From positions 3,808,001 through 3,872,000 of the forward strand of contig OY764159.1 in NCBI GenBank assembly GCA_963668175.1: a stretch of DNA of 64,000 bases. Reading direction: 5' to 3'. This DNA comes from Syntrophales bacterium (GTDB lineage: Bacteria; Desulfobacterota; Syntrophia; Syntrophales; PHBD01). The number at the start of each line of letters is the position of its first letter. Position 1 is the stretch's first letter. A model generated the notes under the pieces. The model made no database searches. It had not been told where the DNA came from and saw only the letters and a program-made list of their open reading frames with translations. A program made the translations under genes and the position numbers. Of the stretch, positions 14,920 through 53,090 are shown piece after piece.

Positions 14920-15374
14920 GACGCCACCTCCTTAGGGTTGAACATCGATGATATTTAAGGGGCCCGATTCACGCCTTTCCAGGCCCCGCCCTTCTTCCGT
15001 TGATGCTATGCTATCACACCGTCATTTAAAAAAAATCCGCAGCAGTCTGAAATCTCAATCAGACGTCCATCATTAAATCGCTCGGAATAGACGGCACCAG
15101 GCCATCGGACATTGTCTGATGCGATCCCGGAAAACGTTTAAGTATCCAGGCTATATTTCCGTCTTCCATCTACACCTGAGACATTAAATGTGGCAGGACG
15201 CCCCGCCGCAGATTCCGCAAAAAAAAGACTTGAGGTAAATCCTCTTCAATGCTTAAGTAAAATGAAGAGAGCTGACGACCGAGTTTCACGCCGAGTTCCA
15301 GGATATCCATCTTCTTACTCATCATTTCGAAGCAGTTGACTTTTGGTAATAAACTTTATCCTCAACCAATCGTT

Positions 15375-16670
15375 ATGACCGTCGACACAAAGCCGAACAA
15401 ATTGATGACCCGCGAACCCTTTCTGTCAATAACGCAGGCAGACAAGGGCTTCCTGCCGCTTTTGGAGGAACTGAGCAAAGCCGAGCAGGAAAAATCGGTC
15501 ATTCTGGACGCCATGACCGAACTCGTCCTGTACCTGGACAAAGACCTGAGGGTTATCTGGGCCAACAAGGCGATGCAAGCCGCTTTCAGCCTGGTTCCCG
15601 GACAATTGAACGGGAAATACTGTTTTGAAGTACTCCACAAGAGGAACAGGCCGTGCAGCAGTTGCCCGGCGGAAAAAACCCTGAAGACCGGCGAACCCCG
15701 CGAGGTCGTCAATCTTACTTCTTATAAGAAAAACTGGGTCTTGCGCAGTTACCCCGTTCGGGACGAAAACGGGGAGCTTTCGGGCGTCGTGGAAATCGTC
15801 ACGGACATCACCGAAAGAAGGCGCGCCGAAGAGGCTTTGAGAAAGTCGGAGCGCAAGTACCGGGAACTTTTCGAAAACGCGAACGACATCATTTTTATAC
15901 TGGATTTCACCGGCAAGATCCTGTCCAGCAATACGGCCTTTTCCAAGACATTCGGTTACGAACCGGAACAGATCAGAGGGCAAAGCATCGAACATATCCT
16001 TCATCCGGACGATGTTCTCCTGGTCCGTCAATTCCTGCAGAAGAAAGCGAGCGAGATCTACGTTCAGAACCCCCTTGAATTCCGGACGATGACCAGTTTC
16101 GGAGAAACGATCTGGCTGGAAGTCAACGCCAGGATCGTCAAGGAAGACGGCAGACAAGTCTCCATTCACGGCATTGCCCGCAATATCACGGAAAGGAAGA
16201 GAATGGAGGAAGCCCTGAAGAGGAGGGAACGGGAACTGGAAGAAAAGTCGAGGAACCTGAAAGACGCCAACACGGCACTTAAGGTCCTCCTGAAACGCCG
16301 TGAAGAAGACAAGACCGAACTCGAAGAGAAGGTCTTGTGCAACATGAGGGAACTGATCCTGCCTTACATCGAGAATCTTAAGCTTGCCACCGTCGACAGC
16401 CTGCAGCGAAATCAACTGAAAATCATCGAACGGAACATCAACGAGATCATCTCCCCTTTCCTGCGCAGCCTCTTCTCGAAATATCCCAACCTTACACCCA
16501 CGGAGATCAAGATCATCAATTTTATCAAAGAAGGACGAACAACCAAGGAAATGGCCGATTTTCTCAATGTATCGGCACGGACCGTCGAGGTTCACAGGGA
16601 CAACATCCGAAAAAAACTGGGGTTGAAAAACAGGAAGGCCAATCTCCGGTCCTATCTTATGTCCATCTGA
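15375..16670 (+). CDS. PAS-PAS-LuxR (HTH) transcriptional regulator
   Basis: Two PAS/PAC domains (DITERR, NITERK), a coiled coil and C-terminal LTPTEIKI..GRTTKEMA..SARTVEVHRDNIRKKLGL. Start codon uncertain. Confidence 0.92.
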   Translation: MTVDTKPNKLMTREPFLSITQADKGFLPLLEELSKAEQEKSVILDAMTELVLYLDKDLRVIWANKAMQAAFSLVPGQLNGKYCFEVLHKRNRPCSSCPAEKTLKTGEPREVVNLTSYKKNWVLRSYPVRDENGELSGVVEIVTDITERRRAEEALRKSERKYRELFENANDIIFILDFTGKILSSNTAFSKTFGYEPEQIRGQSIEHILHPDDVLLVRQFLQKKASEIYVQNPLEFRTMTSFGETIWLEVNARIVKEDGRQVSIHGIARNITERKRMEEALKRRERELEEKSRNLKDANTALKVLLKRREEDKTELEEKVLCNMRELILPYIENLKLATVDSLQRNQLKIIERNINEIISPFLRSLFSKYPNLTPTEIKIINFIKEGRTTKEMADFLNVSARTVEVHRDNIRKKLGLKNRKANLRSYLMSI

Positions 16671-16686
16671 AGCCCGATCGCGGCTC

Positions 16687-16727
16687 TACATAGCATATTT
16701 ACGTAGATAATAAGTATTTTTTCCGTA
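16687..16727 (+). promoter_or_regulatory. Putative LuxR-type operator: TACGTA-like hexamer repeats
   Basis: TACGTA(16700)-N5-TAAGTA(16711)-N5-TCCGTA(16722), 11-bp phased, plus TACATA(16687); lies between the regulator and the downstream operon. Confidence 0.45.
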
Positions 16728-16838
16728 TTGCATCTTCATTCAATCGGTGTTTCTATCAACCCCAAAAGGATAATGCCGATTGTCGGATGCAGAGACAGCC
16801 AGCTCATTTTGACCGAATTCCATAAGGAGGTGTAACCT

Positions 16839-17381
16839 ATGACACGAGAAGAAAAGATTGAGGAAATACGCCAGCGCGCCCGGAAGAATTTTTCCCTGGG
16901 GTACAATTGTGCCGAATGCGTGACCGAAGCCGTTTTAAGTCTCGTTGACACGGGACTCCCGCCTGAAGTGAAGAAAGTGGCTACAGGGTTTGGCGGCGGC
17001 ATCGGGCTTTTCGGAGATACATGCGGAGCCTTGGCGGGGGCCGTTATGGCCGTAAGCGCCGTTCACGGAAGGGCATCTCTTCCCGAGGGAGCAGACCCCA
17101 AGGAAGTCGCCATGAAATCAAAACAGAACTTCTATGGCAAACCGGGCGTTTACAGGATTTTCAATCAGGTGCCCAACCGCTTCATGGCCAAGCACGGCAA
17201 GACCCTGTGCCGGGAATTGACGGTTTTATGGCAGGACTCCTGGCTTTGCAAGGAGCACGCCCTTTTCTGCCGGGAATTGATCACCGACGCCGCAGGCATC
17301 GCCGCGGACCTCATCCTTTCCGACAAGGCGGAACTGTCCATGAAACCGTTCGGAAAAAACGTGGAAAACCTGAAAGACTGA
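16839..17381 (+). CDS. C_GCAxxG_C_C family putative redox-active protein
   Basis: YNCAECV, ATGFGGGIG, TCGALAGA, LCRELT, FCRELI; AAGGAGG RBS. Confidence 0.9.
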   Translation: MTREEKIEEIRQRARKNFSLGYNCAECVTEAVLSLVDTGLPPEVKKVATGFGGGIGLFGDTCGALAGAVMAVSAVHGRASLPEGADPKEVAMKSKQNFYGKPGVYRIFNQVPNRFMAKHGKTLCRELTVLWQDSWLCKEHALFCRELITDAAGIAADLILSDKAELSMKPFGKNVENLKD

Positions 17382-17584
17382 AGTCTGTCCGGTGAATACC
17401 TGAGGCGTAACGAGATAAAATATAGCGAGTTACATCCTTCGGAAGCATACCGGAGGCCTGAGCGCAGAGGTGTTGAATCGTTGCGCATGCAAGGATCCTT
17501 CCGGGACGTCGCGGAGTTTTCGAAGACGACACCCGGAAGACATCCGGCAGCGACGAGAAAAAACAGAAGGAGAATGCAGGAGAC

Positions 17585-18919
17585 ATGGGACGTAAACTGG
17601 TAGTAATCGGCGGCGGTGCGGCAGGCCCCTCTACGGCCGCGGAAGCGAAGAGAAGAGACAAGTCGCTTGACGTTACGATGATTGAAGGAGGCAACTTCGT
17701 CTCTTACGCGGCCTGACCGATGCCTTATTACATCGGTGATGTAATCAAAGATTACAAGCGGCTGGTGATCCGGACACCCGAAGATTTCGAAAAAACGGGC
17801 GTCCATGTGAAAATCAATACCCGCGCGGAAGACATCGACGCCCAAAAGGGCCTGGTCCGCTTATCCGACCAATCGAGCCTGCCTTACGACATTCTGGTCA
17901 TGGCCACCGGAGCCGCAGCGCAACGCTTGAACATTCCGGGCGCCGACATGGAAGGTGTTTTCGTTCTCAGAGATCTCGGCGATGCCCTTAAGATTAAAGC
18001 CTACTTGAACGAGAAGACCTGCCGTAAAGCCGTTCTTATCGGCGCCGGCTACGTCGGGATGGAAATGTGCGAGGCATTGCGGAATCTCGGTATCGAGACG
18101 ACCGTTCTCGATATCCTTCCCCGTCCTGTTGTTCGCTGGGATGCGGAATTTTCAAAACTGGTCCTCGAAGAACTGGGAAAGAACAACGTCCCTTTCCTGG
18201 CGGAGACGAAACCCCTTGCCATCGAACCGGGGAAAGAGAGCCGCCTTATCCTGAGAACCGACAAGGGGGACATGGATGCGGACCTTATCTTAATGGGCGT
18301 CGGCACCCGTCGGGATATGACACTGGCAAAAGCCGTGGGCATCGAGGCGGGCGCCAGCGGCGCCATCAAAGTGGATTCCCGGCAGCGGACATCTATTCCC
18401 GATATCTACGCCGTCGGCGACTGCTGCGAGGTCTTTCACAAAGTAGCCAACCGCTGGGTCTATTTCCCTCTGGGCGACATCGCCAACAAGCAGGGTCGCG
18501 TAGCCGGCCAGAACATCGGCGGAAATCCCGCCGAATTCCCCGGTATCGTTGGCGCCCAGTCTTTCAAGGCGTTCAACCTTGAAGTCGGGGCCACGGGACT
18601 TACGGAAGACGAAGCGACATTGTATGGATTCCAGCCTGTAAGTTCCCTCATCTGGGGGCTCCCCATCGGGCGGCCGATGGCAAAAGGCGAGAAACTGGGG
18701 ATAAAACTCATAGCAGACAAGACCACGGGAAAGCTTATCGGTGGTCAATGCATCGGTGAAAAAGGGGCCATTCAGCGCGTTTTCGCCTTGTCCGTAGCAC
18801 TATGGTCGGGTTTGCACATCGATGAAGTCGGCTACCTGGACTTTCCTTATGCACCGCCTTTCGGCGGCGCCTGGGATGCCATTCACATCGCCGCCCAGGA
18901 TCTGGCGAGAAAGATATAA
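17585..18919 (+). CDS. Selenocysteine-containing CoA-disulfide reductase / NADH oxidase family flavoprotein (444 aa, Sec44)
   Basis: ATG 17585 (AGGAG RBS) gives MGRKLVVIGGGAAG...SYAA-TGA(17714)-PMPYYIG, in frame with the 17720 ORF. The TGA sits at the SYxxC(G)LPY redox Cys. Also GAGYVGME, IYAVGDC and YAPPF motifs. Confidence 0.9.
17727..17745 (+). promoter_or_regulatory. Bacterial SECIS-like hairpin
   Basis: ATTACATC-ggt-GATGTAAT, a perfect 8-bp stem with a G-containing loop, starting at +11 after the UGA. Confidence 0.8.
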
Positions 18920-18980
18920 CAAGCATAGGCCTCACGGGGGACAGGTCGCAGGTTACACAAGAACATTCAGGAGGTCGGCA

Positions 18981-19301
18981 ATGGCGGCAAGTGCGTCGGG
19001 AGTAGAGATGATCGCAATAAGTATGGACGGTAAGGTACACCGTGTCTATCAGGGTTTGTCCGGTACCTTTGCCGGTCTGTCTTATTGCTGCGTCGATAAA
19101 AGGATGCTGCCCGGTTTTTTCGAGAAAGACCTGGTTGCGGAAGCCGCGTTAAAAGACCGGAAGCTTTCCCTTTCGCTTTCGGGACATCTCTCCAGATCGG
19201 AATTGCTGGAGATATTGGAAACAGCTTTACTGAACATGGTGGCCTTCCCCCTCCCGGGGAGCAAGGCCGATTTCTTCATAGAGGCTAAATCCAACAAATA
19301 A
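18981..19301 (+). CDS. Hypothetical protein, 106 aa
   Basis: AGGAGGT RBS before ATG 18981; ends 12 nt before the next gene's ATG; contains a CC pair (LSYCCVD). Confidence 0.7.
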   Translation: MAASASGVEMIAISMDGKVHRVYQGLSGTFAGLSYCCVDKRMLPGFFEKDLVAEAALKDRKLSLSLSGHLSRSELLEILETALLNMVAFPLPGSKADFFIEAKSNK

Positions 19302-19312
19302 GGGAGGTCATT

Positions 19313-20761
19313 ATGGCATTAAAGACGGCGAACGAATTTTTGGACAGCATCAAAAAAATGAAGCCCCGTGTATACTGCGGAGGGAAATGGGTCACGAATC
19401 TCTTGGACAATCCCGTTACCCGATCGATGGTCATGGCCAACTCGGCAATCTACGGACTGGCGGAAGACCCGAACAACAAAGAGGTCATGGTGGCGACATC
19501 CCACTTGACGGGGGAACCGATCAACCGTAACCTTAACGTGGCCAGAAACATCCACGACCTGGATATGCGCCAGGAAATGGCCCTGCTCACCAGCCAGACC
19601 GTCGGCACCTGCAACTACCGCTGTGTCGGCTGCGACGCCTTAAACAGCCTGGCTGCCACGACATGGGAAATGGACCGCGATCTGGGCACGAAATATAATG
19701 AGCGATTCAATAAATGGCTCACCTATGCGCAGAACAACGACCTGGCCGTTTCCGGCGCAATTACCGACGCCAAGGGCGATCGCAAGAAGAGGCCTTCCCA
19801 GCAGGACGACATCGATACCTATATCCACTTAAACGAAAAGCGCGACGACGGCATCGTGGTAAGCGGAATCAAGGTCAGCCAGAGCGGAGCCATCGGTTCC
19901 CATGAAACACTCGTCCTCCCGGGCGGTGGAATGAAGGAAGGAGAGGAAAAATTCGCCTTGGCCTTCGCCGTTCAGAACAGTGCTCCAGGCGTGACGTATA
20001 TCTGCCAGTACAACGCCTACTCGGCGGAACGGGCTGCATGCGACAGCGAAGACGAACTGGGAAATCCGATTTACGGCCAGCGGGAAACTTCGACGATGGT
20101 CTTCGACAACGTCTTTATCCCCTGGGAGCGGGTCTTTCTTTGCGGCGAAACGAAATACTGCGGCAAGATGGTTACCCGCTTCGCCAAGGCCCATCGCATG
20201 AACTGCGGCGGCGCCTGCAAGGTCGGATTCGCCGACCTGATTATCGGCGGCGCCATGATGGCAGCCGAATTAACGGGTGTTGAAAAAGTCCCGCACATCC
20301 AGGAAAAAATCATCGATATGGTCCGTTTCAGCGAAACCTCCCACGCTTGCGCCATCGCTGCCGCCATGCGGGGCAGAGAGGAGCCCAAGGGTTCGGGCGT
20401 CTACCTCCCGGACGATCTCTTCGGCAACGCCGCCAAGCTGAACATCGCCCACGGCTTCTGGGAAATACTGAAGAATGCCGGGGATATCGGCGGCGGGCTC
20501 GTCGTCACCATGCCGAGATTGAAAGACCTGGACAACCCGGAAGTCGGTCCGATGTTGAAGAAGGCATTTACAGCCGCCGGTCCGGCCGATCAGCGCTTAA
20601 AAGTCGCCAAGTTCCTGCAGCACTGGACGGCAGGCCTGCACGGGCCGGGGACATGGCATGGCGCCGGCGCGCCCCAGTCTCAGCGGGTCATGTTTACGGT
20701 CCTTACGGATTTCGAAACAAAGAAGAAAATGGCCAAGAAACTGATGGGCATGAAGGAATAA
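19313..20761 (+). CDS. 4-hydroxybutyryl-CoA dehydratase (AbfD)/HpaB-family protein, divergent paralogue 1
   Basis: SHLTGEPINR, GTCNYRCVGCD, ITDAKGDR, FDNVFIPWERVFLCGE, HRMNCGGACK, HGAGAPQ. Confidence 0.88.
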   Translation: MALKTANEFLDSIKKMKPRVYCGGKWVTNLLDNPVTRSMVMANSAIYGLAEDPNNKEVMVATSHLTGEPINRNLNVARNIHDLDMRQEMALLTSQTVGTCNYRCVGCDALNSLAATTWEMDRDLGTKYNERFNKWLTYAQNNDLAVSGAITDAKGDRKKRPSQQDDIDTYIHLNEKRDDGIVVSGIKVSQSGAIGSHETLVLPGGGMKEGEEKFALAFAVQNSAPGVTYICQYNAYSAERAACDSEDELGNPIYGQRETSTMVFDNVFIPWERVFLCGETKYCGKMVTRFAKAHRMNCGGACKVGFADLIIGGAMMAAELTGVEKVPHIQEKIIDMVRFSETSHACAIAAAMRGREEPKGSGVYLPDDLFGNAAKLNIAHGFWEILKNAGDIGGGLVVTMPRLKDLDNPEVGPMLKKAFTAAGPADQRLKVAKFLQHWTAGLHGPGTWHGAGAPQSQRVMFTVLTDFETKKKMAKKLMGMKE

Positions 20762-20769
20762 TCAGGAAC

Positions 20770-20810
20770 AAAAACCCCGGACCGTTTCTTCGGATGGTCC
20801 GGGGTTTTAT
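20770..20810. terminator. Bidirectional rho-independent terminator
   Basis: AAAAACCCCGGACC...GGTCCGGGGTTTT between convergent genes. Confidence 0.8.
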
Positions 20811-20829
20811 TCCCCGATGAAACGTTGTC

Positions 20830-23800
20830 TTATACCCTACCGTCCAAAACGTCCCGGACAATCCTGCCCAGGTCCTTTTTCGCAAAGGGCTTCATGATAA
20901 AAGCCCTGATTCCAAGTACCTTTGCCCGTGTTTCATCGATATACTCGCTGAATCCCGTGCACAGTATAATGGGTATATCCGATCTGATTTTCATGATTTC
21001 TCTTGCCAGCTCACTTCCCGGCATTGTCGGCATCGTCATATCCGTGATGACCAGATCGAATTGCGCAGGATCGGCGATAAACATCTTTAAGACCTCCACG
21101 CTGCTTGTCCCCGCCGTTACTTTATAACCGAGAGATTCGAGGATCATTCGGGCCAGATCAAGGAGTATCTTGTCGTCATCCGCATACAGGATATGTTCGT
21201 GTCCACGGGAAATGGTTTCCTCGCCGGCTATCTCCATTTCTGTGTCCTCTTTCTCGATTGAGGGAAGATAGACGTCGAAAATCGCGCCTTTCCCGCTTTC
21301 GCTGGTTACGTAAATCATACCGTCGTGATTCTTAACAATGCCGTAAACGACGGAAAGCCCAAGACCGGTCCCTTCTCCCGTCGCCTTGGTCGTGAAGAAA
21401 GGTTCGAAAATGCGTTCCTCGACGGCAGGATCTATCCCCGGTCCCGTATCGGCCACGCTCAATTTGATATAAAAACCGGGTCGAAAATCGGAATGGCCGG
21501 GTAATTTTTCAACCCGCAGATCCGCCTGTGAAAGATCGACCGTAAGGATACCCCCCTTCTCTCCCATAGCCTGGGCGGCATTTGTGCACAGATTCATGAT
21601 GATCTGGTGCATCTGGGTAATATCCGCATTGATCGTGCAGGAGGCATTGGTTATCTTCTGACGGATTTCAATTGTTGTCGGGAAGGTGGAACGGATGAGT
21701 TTGAGGGCCTCTTTCGCAATCGGTCTCAGATCGACGGGTTTCTTTTCATAGTCCGTATGGCGGCTGAAGGTCAGGATTTGCTTGACGAGGTTCTTCGCTC
21801 GGCTGGAGGCATTCAAAACTTCACTGAGTTTGCGACGGCGGCTTATGGGATCGTGTTCATCGAGCGACAACTCCGTGTAGCCGATAATCGCCGCCAGGAT
21901 GTTATTGAAATCATGGGCGATACCCCCGGCCAGCGTACCGATGGCTTCCATTTTCTGGGCTTGATGGAACTGCGTTTCTAAGTGGACACGTTCCGTTATA
22001 TCCTGGACCGTCTGAACAGCCCCGGCTACTTTTCCGGCCGGATCGAAAATTCTCGCCGCCTGAATGGATACGATCCTCTCTTCGCCATCCGGCCAGATCC
22101 TGCCGGTACTCTCGAATCGTCCGGAGAACTGGGCATTCTTCAGAATCCCCCGGTGACCGAATTTTGTCATGACTTCATCGTCCGTCATGTTCAGAAGGAG
22201 TTCGGCAAGGGATGGATGCGCTTTTCCCTTGAAAAGATGGCTGATATCCAATTCTCGTCCCATGACGTCCTCTTTTGACTTCCCCATGAAGATTTCGCTG
22301 CTCCGGTTCCAGAGGACAACTGTCCGGTCGCGGTCGATGACAAAGGCGGAAATGGGAATCCTGTCAAGGATGGCCACAAGGCGGTCGTGTTCTTGGGACA
22401 AGGCCTCTTCCATCCGGCGCCTTTCGGTGATGTCCCTGATTGATTCAATGGCGCCGACGATGGCGCCCCTTGTGTCATAAAGAGGCGCGGCCGTTCCGAG
22501 CAGGTACGCCTTTCGTCCCTGCAGGTTATGTATGTATGCCTCCCCGATGATTAAATCGTCCTGTCTTTTGATACCTTCATATTTGTTTTCAAGGCCTTCC
22601 CGAGGTTCAAACACCAGGTCGATGAGTATCGGCCTTTTCACACCATAAAAGGGGATTGCGTATTCATAATCCCCTTTCCCGAGGATATCCACGGCCATGA
22701 ATCCGGTCAGGGCTTCTATGGCCCGGTTCCAGGCGATCACCCTTCCTTCTCTGTCGATGACCATAGTCGCATCCGGCAGGAAGTTGATAATGTCGGAAAG
22801 GCGGCGTTCGCCTTCATGCAGAGCCTTTTCCGCCTGCTTACGCCGGGTGATATCAATGATAGTTCCTGAAACCAAGTTCTCTTCAAGAACGCAGGAAGTC
22901 AGGATAAATTTTGTTTCCCCGGATTTCGAAAGAACCTCTATCTCGTAATTCAGGACACGGCCATATTGCTGAAGCGACTCAAGGAATTTTCTCCGGTCGT
23001 TCCAGTCCTTATACAATGTTACGGCGTTCACTCCTATCATCGCGTTTGCCGACTCATATCCGAATATATCGGCATAGGCCTGGTTCGCGAATAATATCCG
23101 GCCGTCCGCACTCGCCTGATAAACACCGACAGGTGTATTGTCGACGAGATCCCGGTACTTCTTCTCGGAACGCCTCAGATCTTCTCCGATTTTCTTGCGC
23201 TCCGTATTGTCCCGGATACATTCGATCGCACCGATGATCTCGCCCTTCGAATTGCGGAGGATTGATGCCGTGGCGGAAAGATGGGCCCCTCGGCTCCCCT
23301 GCAGGGCCGGCGTATAGGATTCTCCGAAGAGAATCTCACCTCTTCTTTCGAACGTCGTATATTGCTTCTCAAGCTCCTCATCGGGATTCAGAACGAGATC
23401 GATAAGGGTCGGACGTCTCACACCGTAGAAAGGAACGCCATGTTCATAATTTCCCTTACCGATCATGTCTTTGGAATCGACTCCTGTCATGTCTTCCATG
23501 GCCCGGTTCCAGGCGATCACCTTTCCCTCCCGGTCGATAACCATGGTCGCATCCGGCAGAAAGTCGATAATGGTAGCCAGTTGCCGCTCGCTTTCCCGAA
23601 GGGCCTGTTCGACCTTCTTCCTCTCGGTAATATCACGGATCGACTCAATGGCCCCCGTCAGGGCGCCTTTACTGTCGTATAAAGGGCTGGCGATGCCCCA
23701 GAGGATACATGGCCTGCTTTCGGTGGACACGTCCGCTTCGGCCAGGAGCGAGCCGTCTTCGCTGCGCTGCACAAAAAGATACCTTTTTTCAATATCTTCT

Positions 23801-25332
23801 TCGGTTTGAAAGACGAGATCGATCAGAATCGGTCGCCGAACCCCGTAAAAGGGCAAGGCATATTCGTAATTCCCCCTGCCCAGCATTTTAGAAGCGCCGA
23901 TTCCGGTCATTTCCTCAATGGCCCTGTTCCAGGCGATGACACAGCCTCCTTTGTCGATGACAAAGGTCGCATCGGGCAGAAAATCAATGATATGGGCGAG
24001 CCGCTGCCGGGATTCCCTCAACTCGTCGTCGGCCTTCTTGCGCTCGGAGATGTCCCTCCAGGTCGTGTATAGAAGCCTTTTTCCCTTTACCTGAATCGAT
24101 GTCAGCATAACATCCAGATAAAGCTCCGTTCCATCCGGACGCTTGCGAACCCATTCGAAGCGGTTCGATCCCTCGGCAAATGCCAGATTGATCATCTTCT
24201 TCGCCTTTTCCGACGACAGCTCCCCATCTGGTTGCCTGTAAGGGGATATATCCTCCGGCGTCAAACCGAGAAGCTGCGATTTGTCCGAAAAACCTGCAAT
24301 TCTCAGGGCGGATTCATTGCAGTCGACGTAGCGGACCCCGTCCGTGATCAGATTGGCGTCGCCGGATTTTTCAAAGAGAAGACGGAAGACCTCCTCGCTT
24401 TCCCTCAGATGATCCTGCATCCGGATTTGCTCGGTAATATCGCGGCAGGTTCCTTCATAATAGAGAATGCCGCCCTGATCGTCGCTGACAGATCTCGCGT
24501 TAACGGCCACCCAGATTTTGCTCCCGTCTTTGCGGCGTACCTGATATTCGATGTTATCGATCCGCCCGTGCGCTTTAAGGAGACCGGAAAATCGCTCTCG
24601 CTCGACAGGATCGGCGTAGTACTCACGGGATATATCCGAAATCGCGTCGATCATCTCCTGTGGCGAGTCGTACCCGCACATGGCGGCCATGGCCGGGTTG
24701 ACCCGGATGAACCGGCCCTCCGGCGTGCTGTGGTAGATACCGACGAGCATGTTTTCATAGATGCTCCGGTAACGCACCTCGCTTTCTCTTAGTGCCTCGT
24801 TTGCCTTCAAAAGGGCAGCCGTCCGTTCCTCGACCTGCATAGACAGTCTTTCCGTAAGCTGGACAAGCTCGGCTTCCGTACGTTTCTTCTCGGTAATATC
24901 GATCGTATTGCCCAGGACGGCTCTCTTGCCCTGGTACATAATCGAAACCACTTTTTCCAACAGCCATCTGACGCTGCCGTCTTTGCAGAGGATTCGATAC
25001 TCATAAGGCGTCGGGTCTCTGCCCTTCAGCATCCCGATACCTGCGGCCCTGACCCGTATCTGATCCTCCGGATGAACAGTGTCGCTTATCAGGGAGAGTT
25101 TCAAAAGTTCTTCTTCGGAATAACCTGAATAGGAGGAAATGTGCGCATTGGTGAAAACGGTTCTGCCGTTCTGGACGATGTAGATACCGGCCTGCACACT
25201 GTCGGCGATGATCCTGAAGACGTTATCCTCCAGGTTCGACAGGGACATATCCTTCCTCAGACTATCAATCTGCAGCCGCAAGCGGGATACTTCCTCAATA
25301 AGTTCTTTTTTGTCTTTTTCGCCGTCGCGCAT
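20830..25332 (-). CDS. Cytoplasmic multi-PAS hybrid sensor histidine kinase (about 8 PAS, HisKA, HATPase, REC)
   Basis: Repeated PAS/PAC domains, [10 protein letters not shown]-box, NLCTNA, DTGPGI, FFTTK, GTGLGL, and a REC domain (DDD, ITDMTMP, KPF). Start ATG 25332 assumed. Confidence 0.95.
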
Positions 25333-25465
25333 CGAAAAGTCCCGCCGACCGGAAAGATAGAACAAGGGATAGACACCCCGGCGGACGGACCCGAAACGTC
25401 CGTTCGGTATCCCTTGTAATTTGAAGGCTGGTTGATAATCGCCAAAGTATCTGATGAATCAACTA

Positions 25466-53013: not shown

Positions 53014-53090
<77 letters not shown>

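Follow-up and report, generated by a model that had tools for sequence, protein, structure and literature searches.

A predicted selenocysteine form of the CoA-disulfide reductase/NADH oxidase family, encoded with a UGA-proximal hairpin in Syntrophales

Flavoproteins of the CoA-disulfide reductase (CoADR), NADH oxidase (Nox) and NADH peroxidase (Npx) family act through a single redox-active residue, the cysteine (Cys) of an S-x-x-x-C-x-x-P-Y motif near position 42-44. A selenocysteine (Sec, U) version has been described: a 2006 survey named in its tables a selenoprotein family 'NADH oxidase' with one member, from Geobacter metallireducens, and did not include 'NADH oxidase' among its 19 selenoproteins of Syntrophus aciditrophicus (PMC1794560). 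In the tables of two further sources the Sec-CoADR/NADH oxidase family is given the motif UGxP and placed in COG0446 / TIGR03385 (PMC9312934, PMC13188914). A search of the literature for selenoprotein or selenocysteine together with CoA-disulfide reductase or NADH oxidase returned only these surveys and papers on unrelated matters; the full texts and supplements may list more members. The selenocysteine insertion sequence (SECIS) of E. coli fdhF has an essential upper stem-loop 11 nt from the UGA in which G23 and U24 are critical (PMC8659212). Here we describe a gene in a 64,000-nucleotide stretch of DNA (the window) from a Syntrophales bacterium (contig OY764159.1, positions 3,808,001 to 3,872,000), which is a member of this published selenoprotein family with a lineage-specific motif and SECIS and with no new mechanism. 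A preliminary description of the window had already treated the class as known, and the published record of the Geobacter 'NADH oxidase'/CoA-disulfide reductase selenoprotein agrees. We consider it very probable that the gene encodes one homodimer-type flavoprotein of the CoADR/Nox/Npx branch whose single redox-active residue, at position 44, is Sec.

The reading frame opens with the ATG at 17585, continues for 43 codons to a TGA at 17714-17716, passes through CCG to a second ATG at 17720 and closes with the TAA at 18917-18919. When TGA is read as U, it yields 444 residues in which U44 is the sole altered codon. The list of open reading frames (ORFs) held this gene in two pieces, 17585-17716 (43 aa) and 17720-18919 (399 aa). 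That the 399-aa piece lacks the N-terminal GxGxxG, and that the missing 43 codons lie in frame upstream past one TGA, had been noticed in the preliminary description, and all of its coordinates agree with ours. Alignment with full-length homologues identifies ATG 17585 as the predicted start. The features of the gene, all on the + strand, are as follows.

17585..18919, +: predicted selenoprotein coding sequence; its translation matches Pfam Pyr_redox_2, Pyr_redox and Pyr_redox_dim above their cut-offs, and 6ruz over residues 1-439 (E 4.3e-87)
17567..17582, +: two words resembling a Shine-Dalgarno site; AAGGAG (17567-17572) lies 12 nt upstream of the ATG, AGGAG (17578-17582) only 2 nt upstream of it
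17609..17626, +: FAD-binding GxGxxG of the translation, GGGAAG, residues 9-14; absent from the 399-aa ORF call
17714..17716, +: UGA predicted to encode Sec, residue 44, aligned with the catalytic Cys in a conserved column
17727..17745, +: putative SECIS hairpin, with 5' arm ATTACATC (17727-17734), loop GGT (17735-17737) and 3' arm GATGTAAT (17738-17745)
18041..18058, +: second dinucleotide-binding GxGxxG of the translation, GAGYVG, residues 153-158, for NAD(P)H, inside the Pfam Pyr_redox match at 148-219
18422..18427, +: Cys280-Cys281 in a GDCC motif, marked out by its conservation in alignments

In the read-through protein Pfam placed Pyr_redox_2 (PF07992, 193.4 bits) over residues 4-284, then Pyr_redox (PF00070, 67 bits) and Pyr_redox_dim (PF02852, 39.4 bits), all above their cut-offs. 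The protein also aligned over its full length with solved CoADR/Nox/Npx structures, at E values from 4.3e-87 to 5.8e-47, and the closest of these are near enough to settle its fold. The best were 6ruz, 'NADH oxidase' (295.9 bits, E 4.3e-87), and 6pfz, NoxA-3 (242.5 bits), followed by the CoA-disulfide reductases 4fx9, 3kd9, 5l1n and 3cgb, the NADH peroxidase 1nhp with its relatives, and the CoADR 1yqz; these names are the depositors' labels, and 6ruz is known by its label alone. In three alignments residue 44 falls opposite the Cys of VSYGACGLPY in 6ruz and the equivalent Cys of 6pfz and 4fx9, which bears out the earlier placing of the UGA at the redox-active Cys. The glycines that hold the two nucleotides are likewise retained: of 123 aligned rows from the same bacterial order, 121 have both G9 and G14 (the other two rows are partial), and G153 and G155 are invariant in an alignment of database homologues. 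Cys280 was found in all 123 of those rows and in all 40 genes sampled from outside the order (163 members, Sec and Cys forms alike), and Cys281 in 109 of the 123 and 21 of the 40.

The residue-44 column was followed in homologues at the level of both proteins and genomes. Among the best 120 homologues in protein collections, labelled by source as Syntrophales, Syntrophaceae or Deltaproteobacteria bacterium, 112 were 399-400 aa long and started at the Met after the TGA; the remaining eight were full length (438-479 aa) and were natural Cys forms reading SYAACPMPYYIG. When 151 genomes of the same order were searched in six frames, 115 of them gave a total of 123 matches at E <= 1e-100. All 123 were aligned as read-through translations; two partial rows do not reach the column. 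In the 121 genes that cover it, the codon is TGA in 100 (hereafter Sec genes), TGT in 13 and TGC in eight, and no other codon occurs. TGA genes of the order share the column at identities down to 48%. Counted by genome, 92 carry the Sec form only, five carry both, 16 carry the Cys form only and two have partial rows only; the Sec form is thus present in 97 of the 151 genomes and in 18 of the 20 families with a match. Within this order, then, the Sec form is the norm.

Across the phylum, a search of 401 genomes gave matches at E <= 1e-80 in 126, and many of these contain a single TGA. The 40 TGA-bearing genes examined from other orders were picked by hand and not at random; in every one of them, at 34-48% identity, the TGA falls in the residue-44 column. 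In each TGA-bearing gene it is the only stop, and the frame is intact before and after it. Alternation of Cys and TGA at this position had been put forward as a check in the preliminary description, and only TGA, TGT and TGC occur in the 161 genes that cover the column (121 from the order and 40 from outside). The codon that follows was examined in the same alignments. Within the order, 98 of the 100 Sec genes have CCN there and 20 of the 21 Cys genes have Pro after the Cys, while E, S, L, G, A and D are the residues that follow U in the 40 genes of other orders. Thus the Sec-Pro pair, earlier singled out as unusual, does differ from the published UGxP motif, but it is the rule of the order and not an oddity of this gene.

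A FastTree phylogeny of 118 full-length rows, calculated with the columns around the site left out, places the Cys rows in small groups nested in Sec clades. The topology requires 12 switches between Sec and Cys, 11 of them imposed by branches with good support. The simplest reading would be a Sec-rich ancestry with repeated replacement by Cys, although the tree is unrooted and gives no direction.

The preliminary description had reported a perfect 8-bp hairpin with a GGT loop at +11 from the TGA, and this was confirmed at 17727-17745: all eight pairs form and the first base is the 11th after the TGA. Numbered from the U of the UGA, the stem comprises positions 14-21 and 25-32 and the loop is G22 G23 N24. 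Such a hairpin is not by itself beyond chance, since the + strand of the window contains three perfect 8-bp hairpins with a 3-nt loop and 13 with loops of 3-8 nt. Its position, however, is beyond chance, and so is its conservation among homologues. All eight pairs form in 99 of the 100 Sec genes, and seven of the eight in the remaining one. In the 21 Cys genes the stem has decayed, with eight pairs in four genes, seven in five, six in six and five in six. Codons inside the hairpin are nearly frozen in the Sec genes (n=100), being TAT in 97, TAC in 97, ATC in 100, GAT in 100 and GTA in 99, with the glycine codon GGN occurring with all four third bases; in the loop of the RNA, accordingly, the third base may be U, C, G or A. 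The contrast is sharpest at codon +9, where all but one of the 100 Sec genes have GTA and the 21 Cys genes have 12 codons among them, with V, L, A, I, Y or T as the encoded residue.

Covariation was assessed over 117 distinct rows, 113 with the full motif and four with a 7-bp version. Pairing is retained in 99.5% of cells, with G-U in four rows and five cells unpaired, and the changes include compensatory ones: 12 rows have C-G in place of U-A at pair 15-31, and one row has U-A in place of C-G at pair 18-28. Slid-register controls pair in 14-69% of cells. We regard the hairpin as supported as a SECIS because its synonymous sites are frozen, compensatory changes occur and the stem decays in the Cys forms. 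Lying as it does within the codons for YYIGDVI, the hairpin freezes that peptide only where the UGA is kept.

A pattern scan for TGA, 9 nt and the hairpin, with one genome per species, returned at least 119 loci. Among the matches listed are Syntrophales, Syntrophaceae, Smithella/Smithellaceae, Syntrophus, Syntrophobacterales, Desulfarculaceae and Desulfobacteraceae. Three metagenome-assembled genomes labelled Acidobacteriota (L224, L231 and L236) are also among the matches listed and have the exact UGA-plus-hairpin word; these could be gene transfer or binning error. Fifteen genes from other clades (among loci L163-L179, from other orders of the phylum), in which U is followed by G or A, have a second type of hairpin. 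Its stem, also of 8 bp, begins 15 nt after the UGA, a shift of 4 nt, and encloses a loop of 4 nt; pairing reaches 95%, and three pairs show double changes.

In the window's own genome the hairpin word is single-copy. Contigs from two public sequencing runs (X1 and X3) are identical to the window over 17500-17740, and the TGC or TGT at 17714 that the preliminary description would have taken as refuting is not seen in them; the runs possibly derive from the source sample and are not independent support. Several contigs of other depth in X1 and X3 share only 17711-17752 (35-42 bases) with it, and the assembly graphs break at the SECIS, which fits the SECIS acting as a repeat between organisms of one sample.

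The machinery for Sec insertion was searched for in the genome, where the window lies within a single 4.57-Mb contig. The preliminary description had asked after selA, selB, selC and selD, and all four are present: selA (605.8 bits), selB (386.7 bits) and selD (391.4 bits) exceed their curated cut-offs, and a tRNA-Sec exceeds its own (77.4 bits; anticodon TCA according to ARAGORN). The selD gene, which lies outside the window at G000:C1:4129230-4130159 (+), is itself a selenoprotein gene (GAG-U-ACK) with one in-frame TGA. Its element consists of the UGA, 9 nt and an 8-bp stem, AUAGGUCC/GGACCUAU, around a GGA loop, which is the same design as the hairpin studied here. Two further matches were noted elsewhere in the genome, a second match to the tRNA-Sec model (47.9 bits against a gathering score of 47) at G000:C1:1026000-1026093 (+), also outside the window, which may be another tRNA-Sec or an ordinary long-arm tRNA, and a selB-model match (182.7 bits, residues 2-345) that is translation-factor-like and has one in-frame TAG, at G000:C1:1043967-1045136 (+). 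Rfam at gathering thresholds, run over the whole window, returned tRNA only and no SECIS-type family; the sole RNA gene found in the window is a tRNA-Arg with anticodon TCT at 53014-53090 (-).

Together with the conserved TGA column and the hairpin, this machinery upholds the earlier proposal of a Sec44 enzyme that standard callers truncate, and none of the tests aimed at overturning that proposal succeeded. By the established bacterial mechanism, SelB-GTP with Sec-tRNA(Sec) would bind the GGN loop and upper stem while the UGA stands in the A site and, held at the hairpin, would outcompete release factor 2. Several points nevertheless weigh against the reading. Incorporation of Sec at residue 44 is predicted from sequence; a look for RNA runs covering 16800-19400 found none, and runs X5 and X11 gave no match over 17500-17900. 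The spacing of both ribosome-binding-site words to ATG 17585 is non-ideal: the AGGAG of the preliminary description is indeed present, but only 2 nt from the ATG, and the second word, AAGGAG, lies at 12 nt. Minimum free energy (MFE) folding with ViennaRNA prefers another structure, with -17.8 kcal/mol for 60 nt as compared with -5.7 kcal/mol for the 8-bp hairpin alone. None of 500 shuffles came up to the alignment in pairing or in covariation score, but most rows share ancestry, which makes shuffle statistics overstate their independence, and four of the eight pairs never vary. The stem also differs from that of the E. coli fdhF SECIS in having no bulged U, being a perfect 8 bp closed by a 3-nt loop. 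As regards the family, the two CoADR models NF007123/TIGR03385 gave 361.5 and 356.5 bits, below their equivalog cut-offs (361.5 < 458; 356.5 < 578.8), and as regards the substrate, the best solved homologue, 6ruz, is labelled NADH oxidase.

The protein is thus best called CoADR-like and not a CoADR equivalog, its scores being below the curated cut-offs. The equivalog model for the H2O-forming NADH oxidase, NF046103, gave 227.1 bits and its cut-off was likewise not reached (227.1 < 600). Since the CoADR models outscore the NADH oxidase model, we lean towards a CoA-type disulfide or persulfide as the preferred class of substrate, an assignment to which we would give somewhat less than an even chance. 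By the chemistry of the family, electrons would pass from NAD(P)H to FAD and from FAD to Sec44, held there as a selenenylsulfide (Se-S-CoA or that of another thiol) or as a selenenic acid.

The closest competitor, which ranks second to a CoA-type substrate and which we judge possible though rather unlikely, is that the enzyme is an O2- or H2O2-reducing NADH oxidase/peroxidase protecting a strict anaerobe, working through a selenenic acid cycle and not through Se-S-CoA. The best solved homologues carry the NADH oxidase name (6ruz at 295.9 bits, 6pfz at 242.5 bits), though such names are what their depositors chose, and the first published Sec member of the family was named NADH oxidase as well. 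At one distant locus (L190) a rubrerythrin gene adjoins the Sec gene, and in the window a 4-hydroxybutyryl-CoA dehydratase-like enzyme, which we take to be of the oxygen-sensitive type, is encoded two genes downstream. The order of the model scores points the other way, the two CoADR models (361.5 and 356.5 bits) standing above the H2O-forming NADH oxidase model (227.1 bits).

Neighbouring genes raise a further possibility as to the partners of the enzyme. In the window it is flanked by the following genes, of which counts are given for the 29 closest loci, where they are limited by flanks of 1.5 kb, and where stated for 40 more distant loci with flanks of 2.5 kb.

15336..16670, +: PAS-PAS-LuxR(GerE) regulator; 18 of 29 close loci
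16839..17381, +: C-GCAxxG-C-C putative redox protein, Cys form with a normal TGA stop; PF09719 85.1 bits, TIGR01909 62 bits (cut-off 47.4)
18981..19301, +: 106-aa ORF preceded by the ribosome-binding site AGGAGG and encoding a CC motif; seen in 16 of 29 close loci and 0 of 40 distant
19313..20761, +: gene of the 4-hydroxybutyryl-CoA dehydratase / vinylacetyl-CoA isomerase family, with HpaB_N and HpaB; 1u8v E 1.7e-106, 6vjr 4.5e-96

The C-GCAxxG-C-C gene lies directly upstream of the Sec gene in 26 of the 29 close loci and in two of the 40 distant ones, both of which belong to the window gene's clade, and the dehydratase-like gene lies downstream in 15 of the 29. The 106-aa ORF (18981-19301) has no Pfam or NCBIfam match and no usable ESM Atlas match. 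Neighbours were examined in 20 of the distant loci, those from the same order, and there the recurring arrangement is a thioredoxin-reductase-like gene, lgt, the Sec gene and a SpoU-type methylase. This lgt/SpoU context marks a clade at roughly 55% identity (loci L187, L191, L192, L198, L199, L202, L203 and others). The cassette is therefore a trait of one clade and not of the family. A scan for promoters and terminators over 16600-21000 gave no excess over shuffles (2 against 2.7 and 5 against 5.6, respectively); one terminator-like site, at 20788-20804, comes after the last gene of the cassette. Adjoining the cassette, at 20830-25365 (-), is a hybrid sensor kinase of 1511 aa, in which six or more PAS domains accompany HisKA, HATPase and receiver domains. 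At another locus (L188:4037-5776 (-)) a 580-aa paralogue fused to a rhodanese domain adjoins the Sec gene.

In the window's clade the enzyme might be a dedicated NAD(P)H-dependent reductase of the C-GCAxxG-C-C protein, of the 106-aa CC protein or of both, a proposal that we find improbable. What speaks for it is the constancy of the arrangement in the 26 close loci and the two next-closest ones, the invariance of the four Cys of the C-GCAxxG-C-C protein in 23 of the aligned homologues, the retention of the small CC ORF in 16 of 29 close loci, and the fact that in other organisms the C-GCAxxG-C-C family counts among the selenoprotein families (the name of the model TIGR01909 includes 'family (seleno)protein'). 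On the other hand, this neighbour is missing from 38 of the 40 more distant loci that have the Sec enzyme, the context there is one of housekeeping genes (the lgt/SpoU arrangement described above), and adjacency of genes does not equal binding of their products. We hold an extended version to be just as improbable, in which the Sec enzyme of this clade, in its cassette under the PAS-LuxR regulator, would be the NAD(P)H-driven reductase of a small thiol/selenol relay. With the same low expectation, such a relay would maintain CoA or the partner proteins in reduced form, and thereby shield or restore the CoA-ester dehydratase of syntrophic metabolism, an enzyme sensitive to oxygen.

Rival accounts of the UGA and the hairpin fared worse. 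One holds that the functional SECIS is the energetically favoured CCGAUG...CAUCGG hairpin with a second stem, UGUAAUC-AAA-GAUUACA, and we regard this as very unlikely. The fold is the MFE structure at 68 nt (-21.4 kcal/mol, z = -1.95, with seven of 200 shuffles as good) as well as at 60 nt (-17.8 kcal/mol). Its arms, however, are poorly kept among the Sec genes: the CCG of CCGAUG becomes CCC, CCA or CCT in 28 of 100, the ATG varies in 12 of 100, no change is compensated and the downstream GATTAC is not conserved. The 5' arm moreover abuts the UGA and would lie inside the ribosome during decoding. The MFE fold was thus rejected as the SECIS on comparative grounds, its arm being unconserved among the Sec genes.

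Equally unlikely is that the UGA is read as Cys or Trp, by near-cognate read-through or a reassigned code. Nothing specific favours this, beyond Cys being chemically workable at the site, as in the 21 natural Cys forms. The upstream gene stops with TGA at 17379-17381, from which it follows that TGA is not reassigned in this genome, and the conserved hairpin, the full Sec machinery and the Sec-type selD all speak for Sec. That the TGA is a nonsense mutation or sequencing error in a pseudogene would agree with the frame being split by standard callers and with the 399-400-aa form in which 112 of the 120 best homologues are stored, but it is virtually discounted by the same TGA column, with intact frames, in 100 of 121 genes of the order and all 40 chosen outside it, and the X1 and X3 contigs show no difference there. 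A true product of 399 aa starting at Met46 (17720), with the upstream 43 codons forming a separate small ORF or going untranslated, has in its favour the ATG two codons past the TGA and is just as negligible, for that form has neither the FAD-binding GxGxxG nor the catalytic residue, no Shine-Dalgarno word precedes 17720, and the 43 codons are conserved as protein in every homologue and continuous in the natural Cys forms.

The consequences concern annotation and evolution more than mechanism. The order's enzyme is stored almost only as N-terminally truncated, catalytically meaningless entries of 399 aa, and redox and metabolic reconstructions of syntrophic Desulfobacterota miss a selenium-dependent enzyme because of that truncation. 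The alternation of the two forms amounts to a natural experiment, in which seven codons are frozen where UGA is present and drift in both sequence and amino acid where it is UGY, with at least 11-12 switches between the two. The element shared with selD (8 bp, a GGN triloop and a spacer of 9-10 nt) also provides a pattern with which to search for further selenoproteins. Nothing is changed in what is known of Sec decoding itself.

Comparison with known systems places the enzyme as follows. The solved Cys-type homologues have the same three domains and an S-x-x-x-C-x-x-P-Y context that matches residue 44, with Cys where the window protein would have Sec. In 6ruz, 6pfz and 4fx9 the catalytic residue is not followed by Pro, unlike in the window protein, whose Cys280 (GDC) is shared with 6pfz and absent from 6ruz and 4fx9. 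Mammalian thioredoxin reductase is likewise a pyridine nucleotide-disulfide oxidoreductase that uses Sec. There the Sec resides in a C-terminal extension and receives electrons from an N-terminal Cys pair, whereas in the window protein Sec itself would be the flavin-proximal redox residue. The element resembles the E. coli fdhF SECIS in its upper stem-loop 11 nt after the UGA and in the G at position 23, and differs from it at position 24, where the U is critical in fdhF and any base is accepted in the window type.

To the published Sec-CoADR/NADH oxidase family the enzyme is alike in belonging to the same protein family and in having Sec at the position of the single catalytic Cys. Compared with the published description of the UGxP motif, the window motif is U-P-M-P. 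Genes with U-G-I-P at the same column do occur in the sample from other orders; these UGxP-type genes have the second hairpin, shifted by 4 nt and with a 4-nt loop, and are 34-39% identical to the window protein. In number, finally, the one member counted in the table of the 2006 survey (PMC1794560) compares with a Sec form in 97 of 151 genomes of a single order here.

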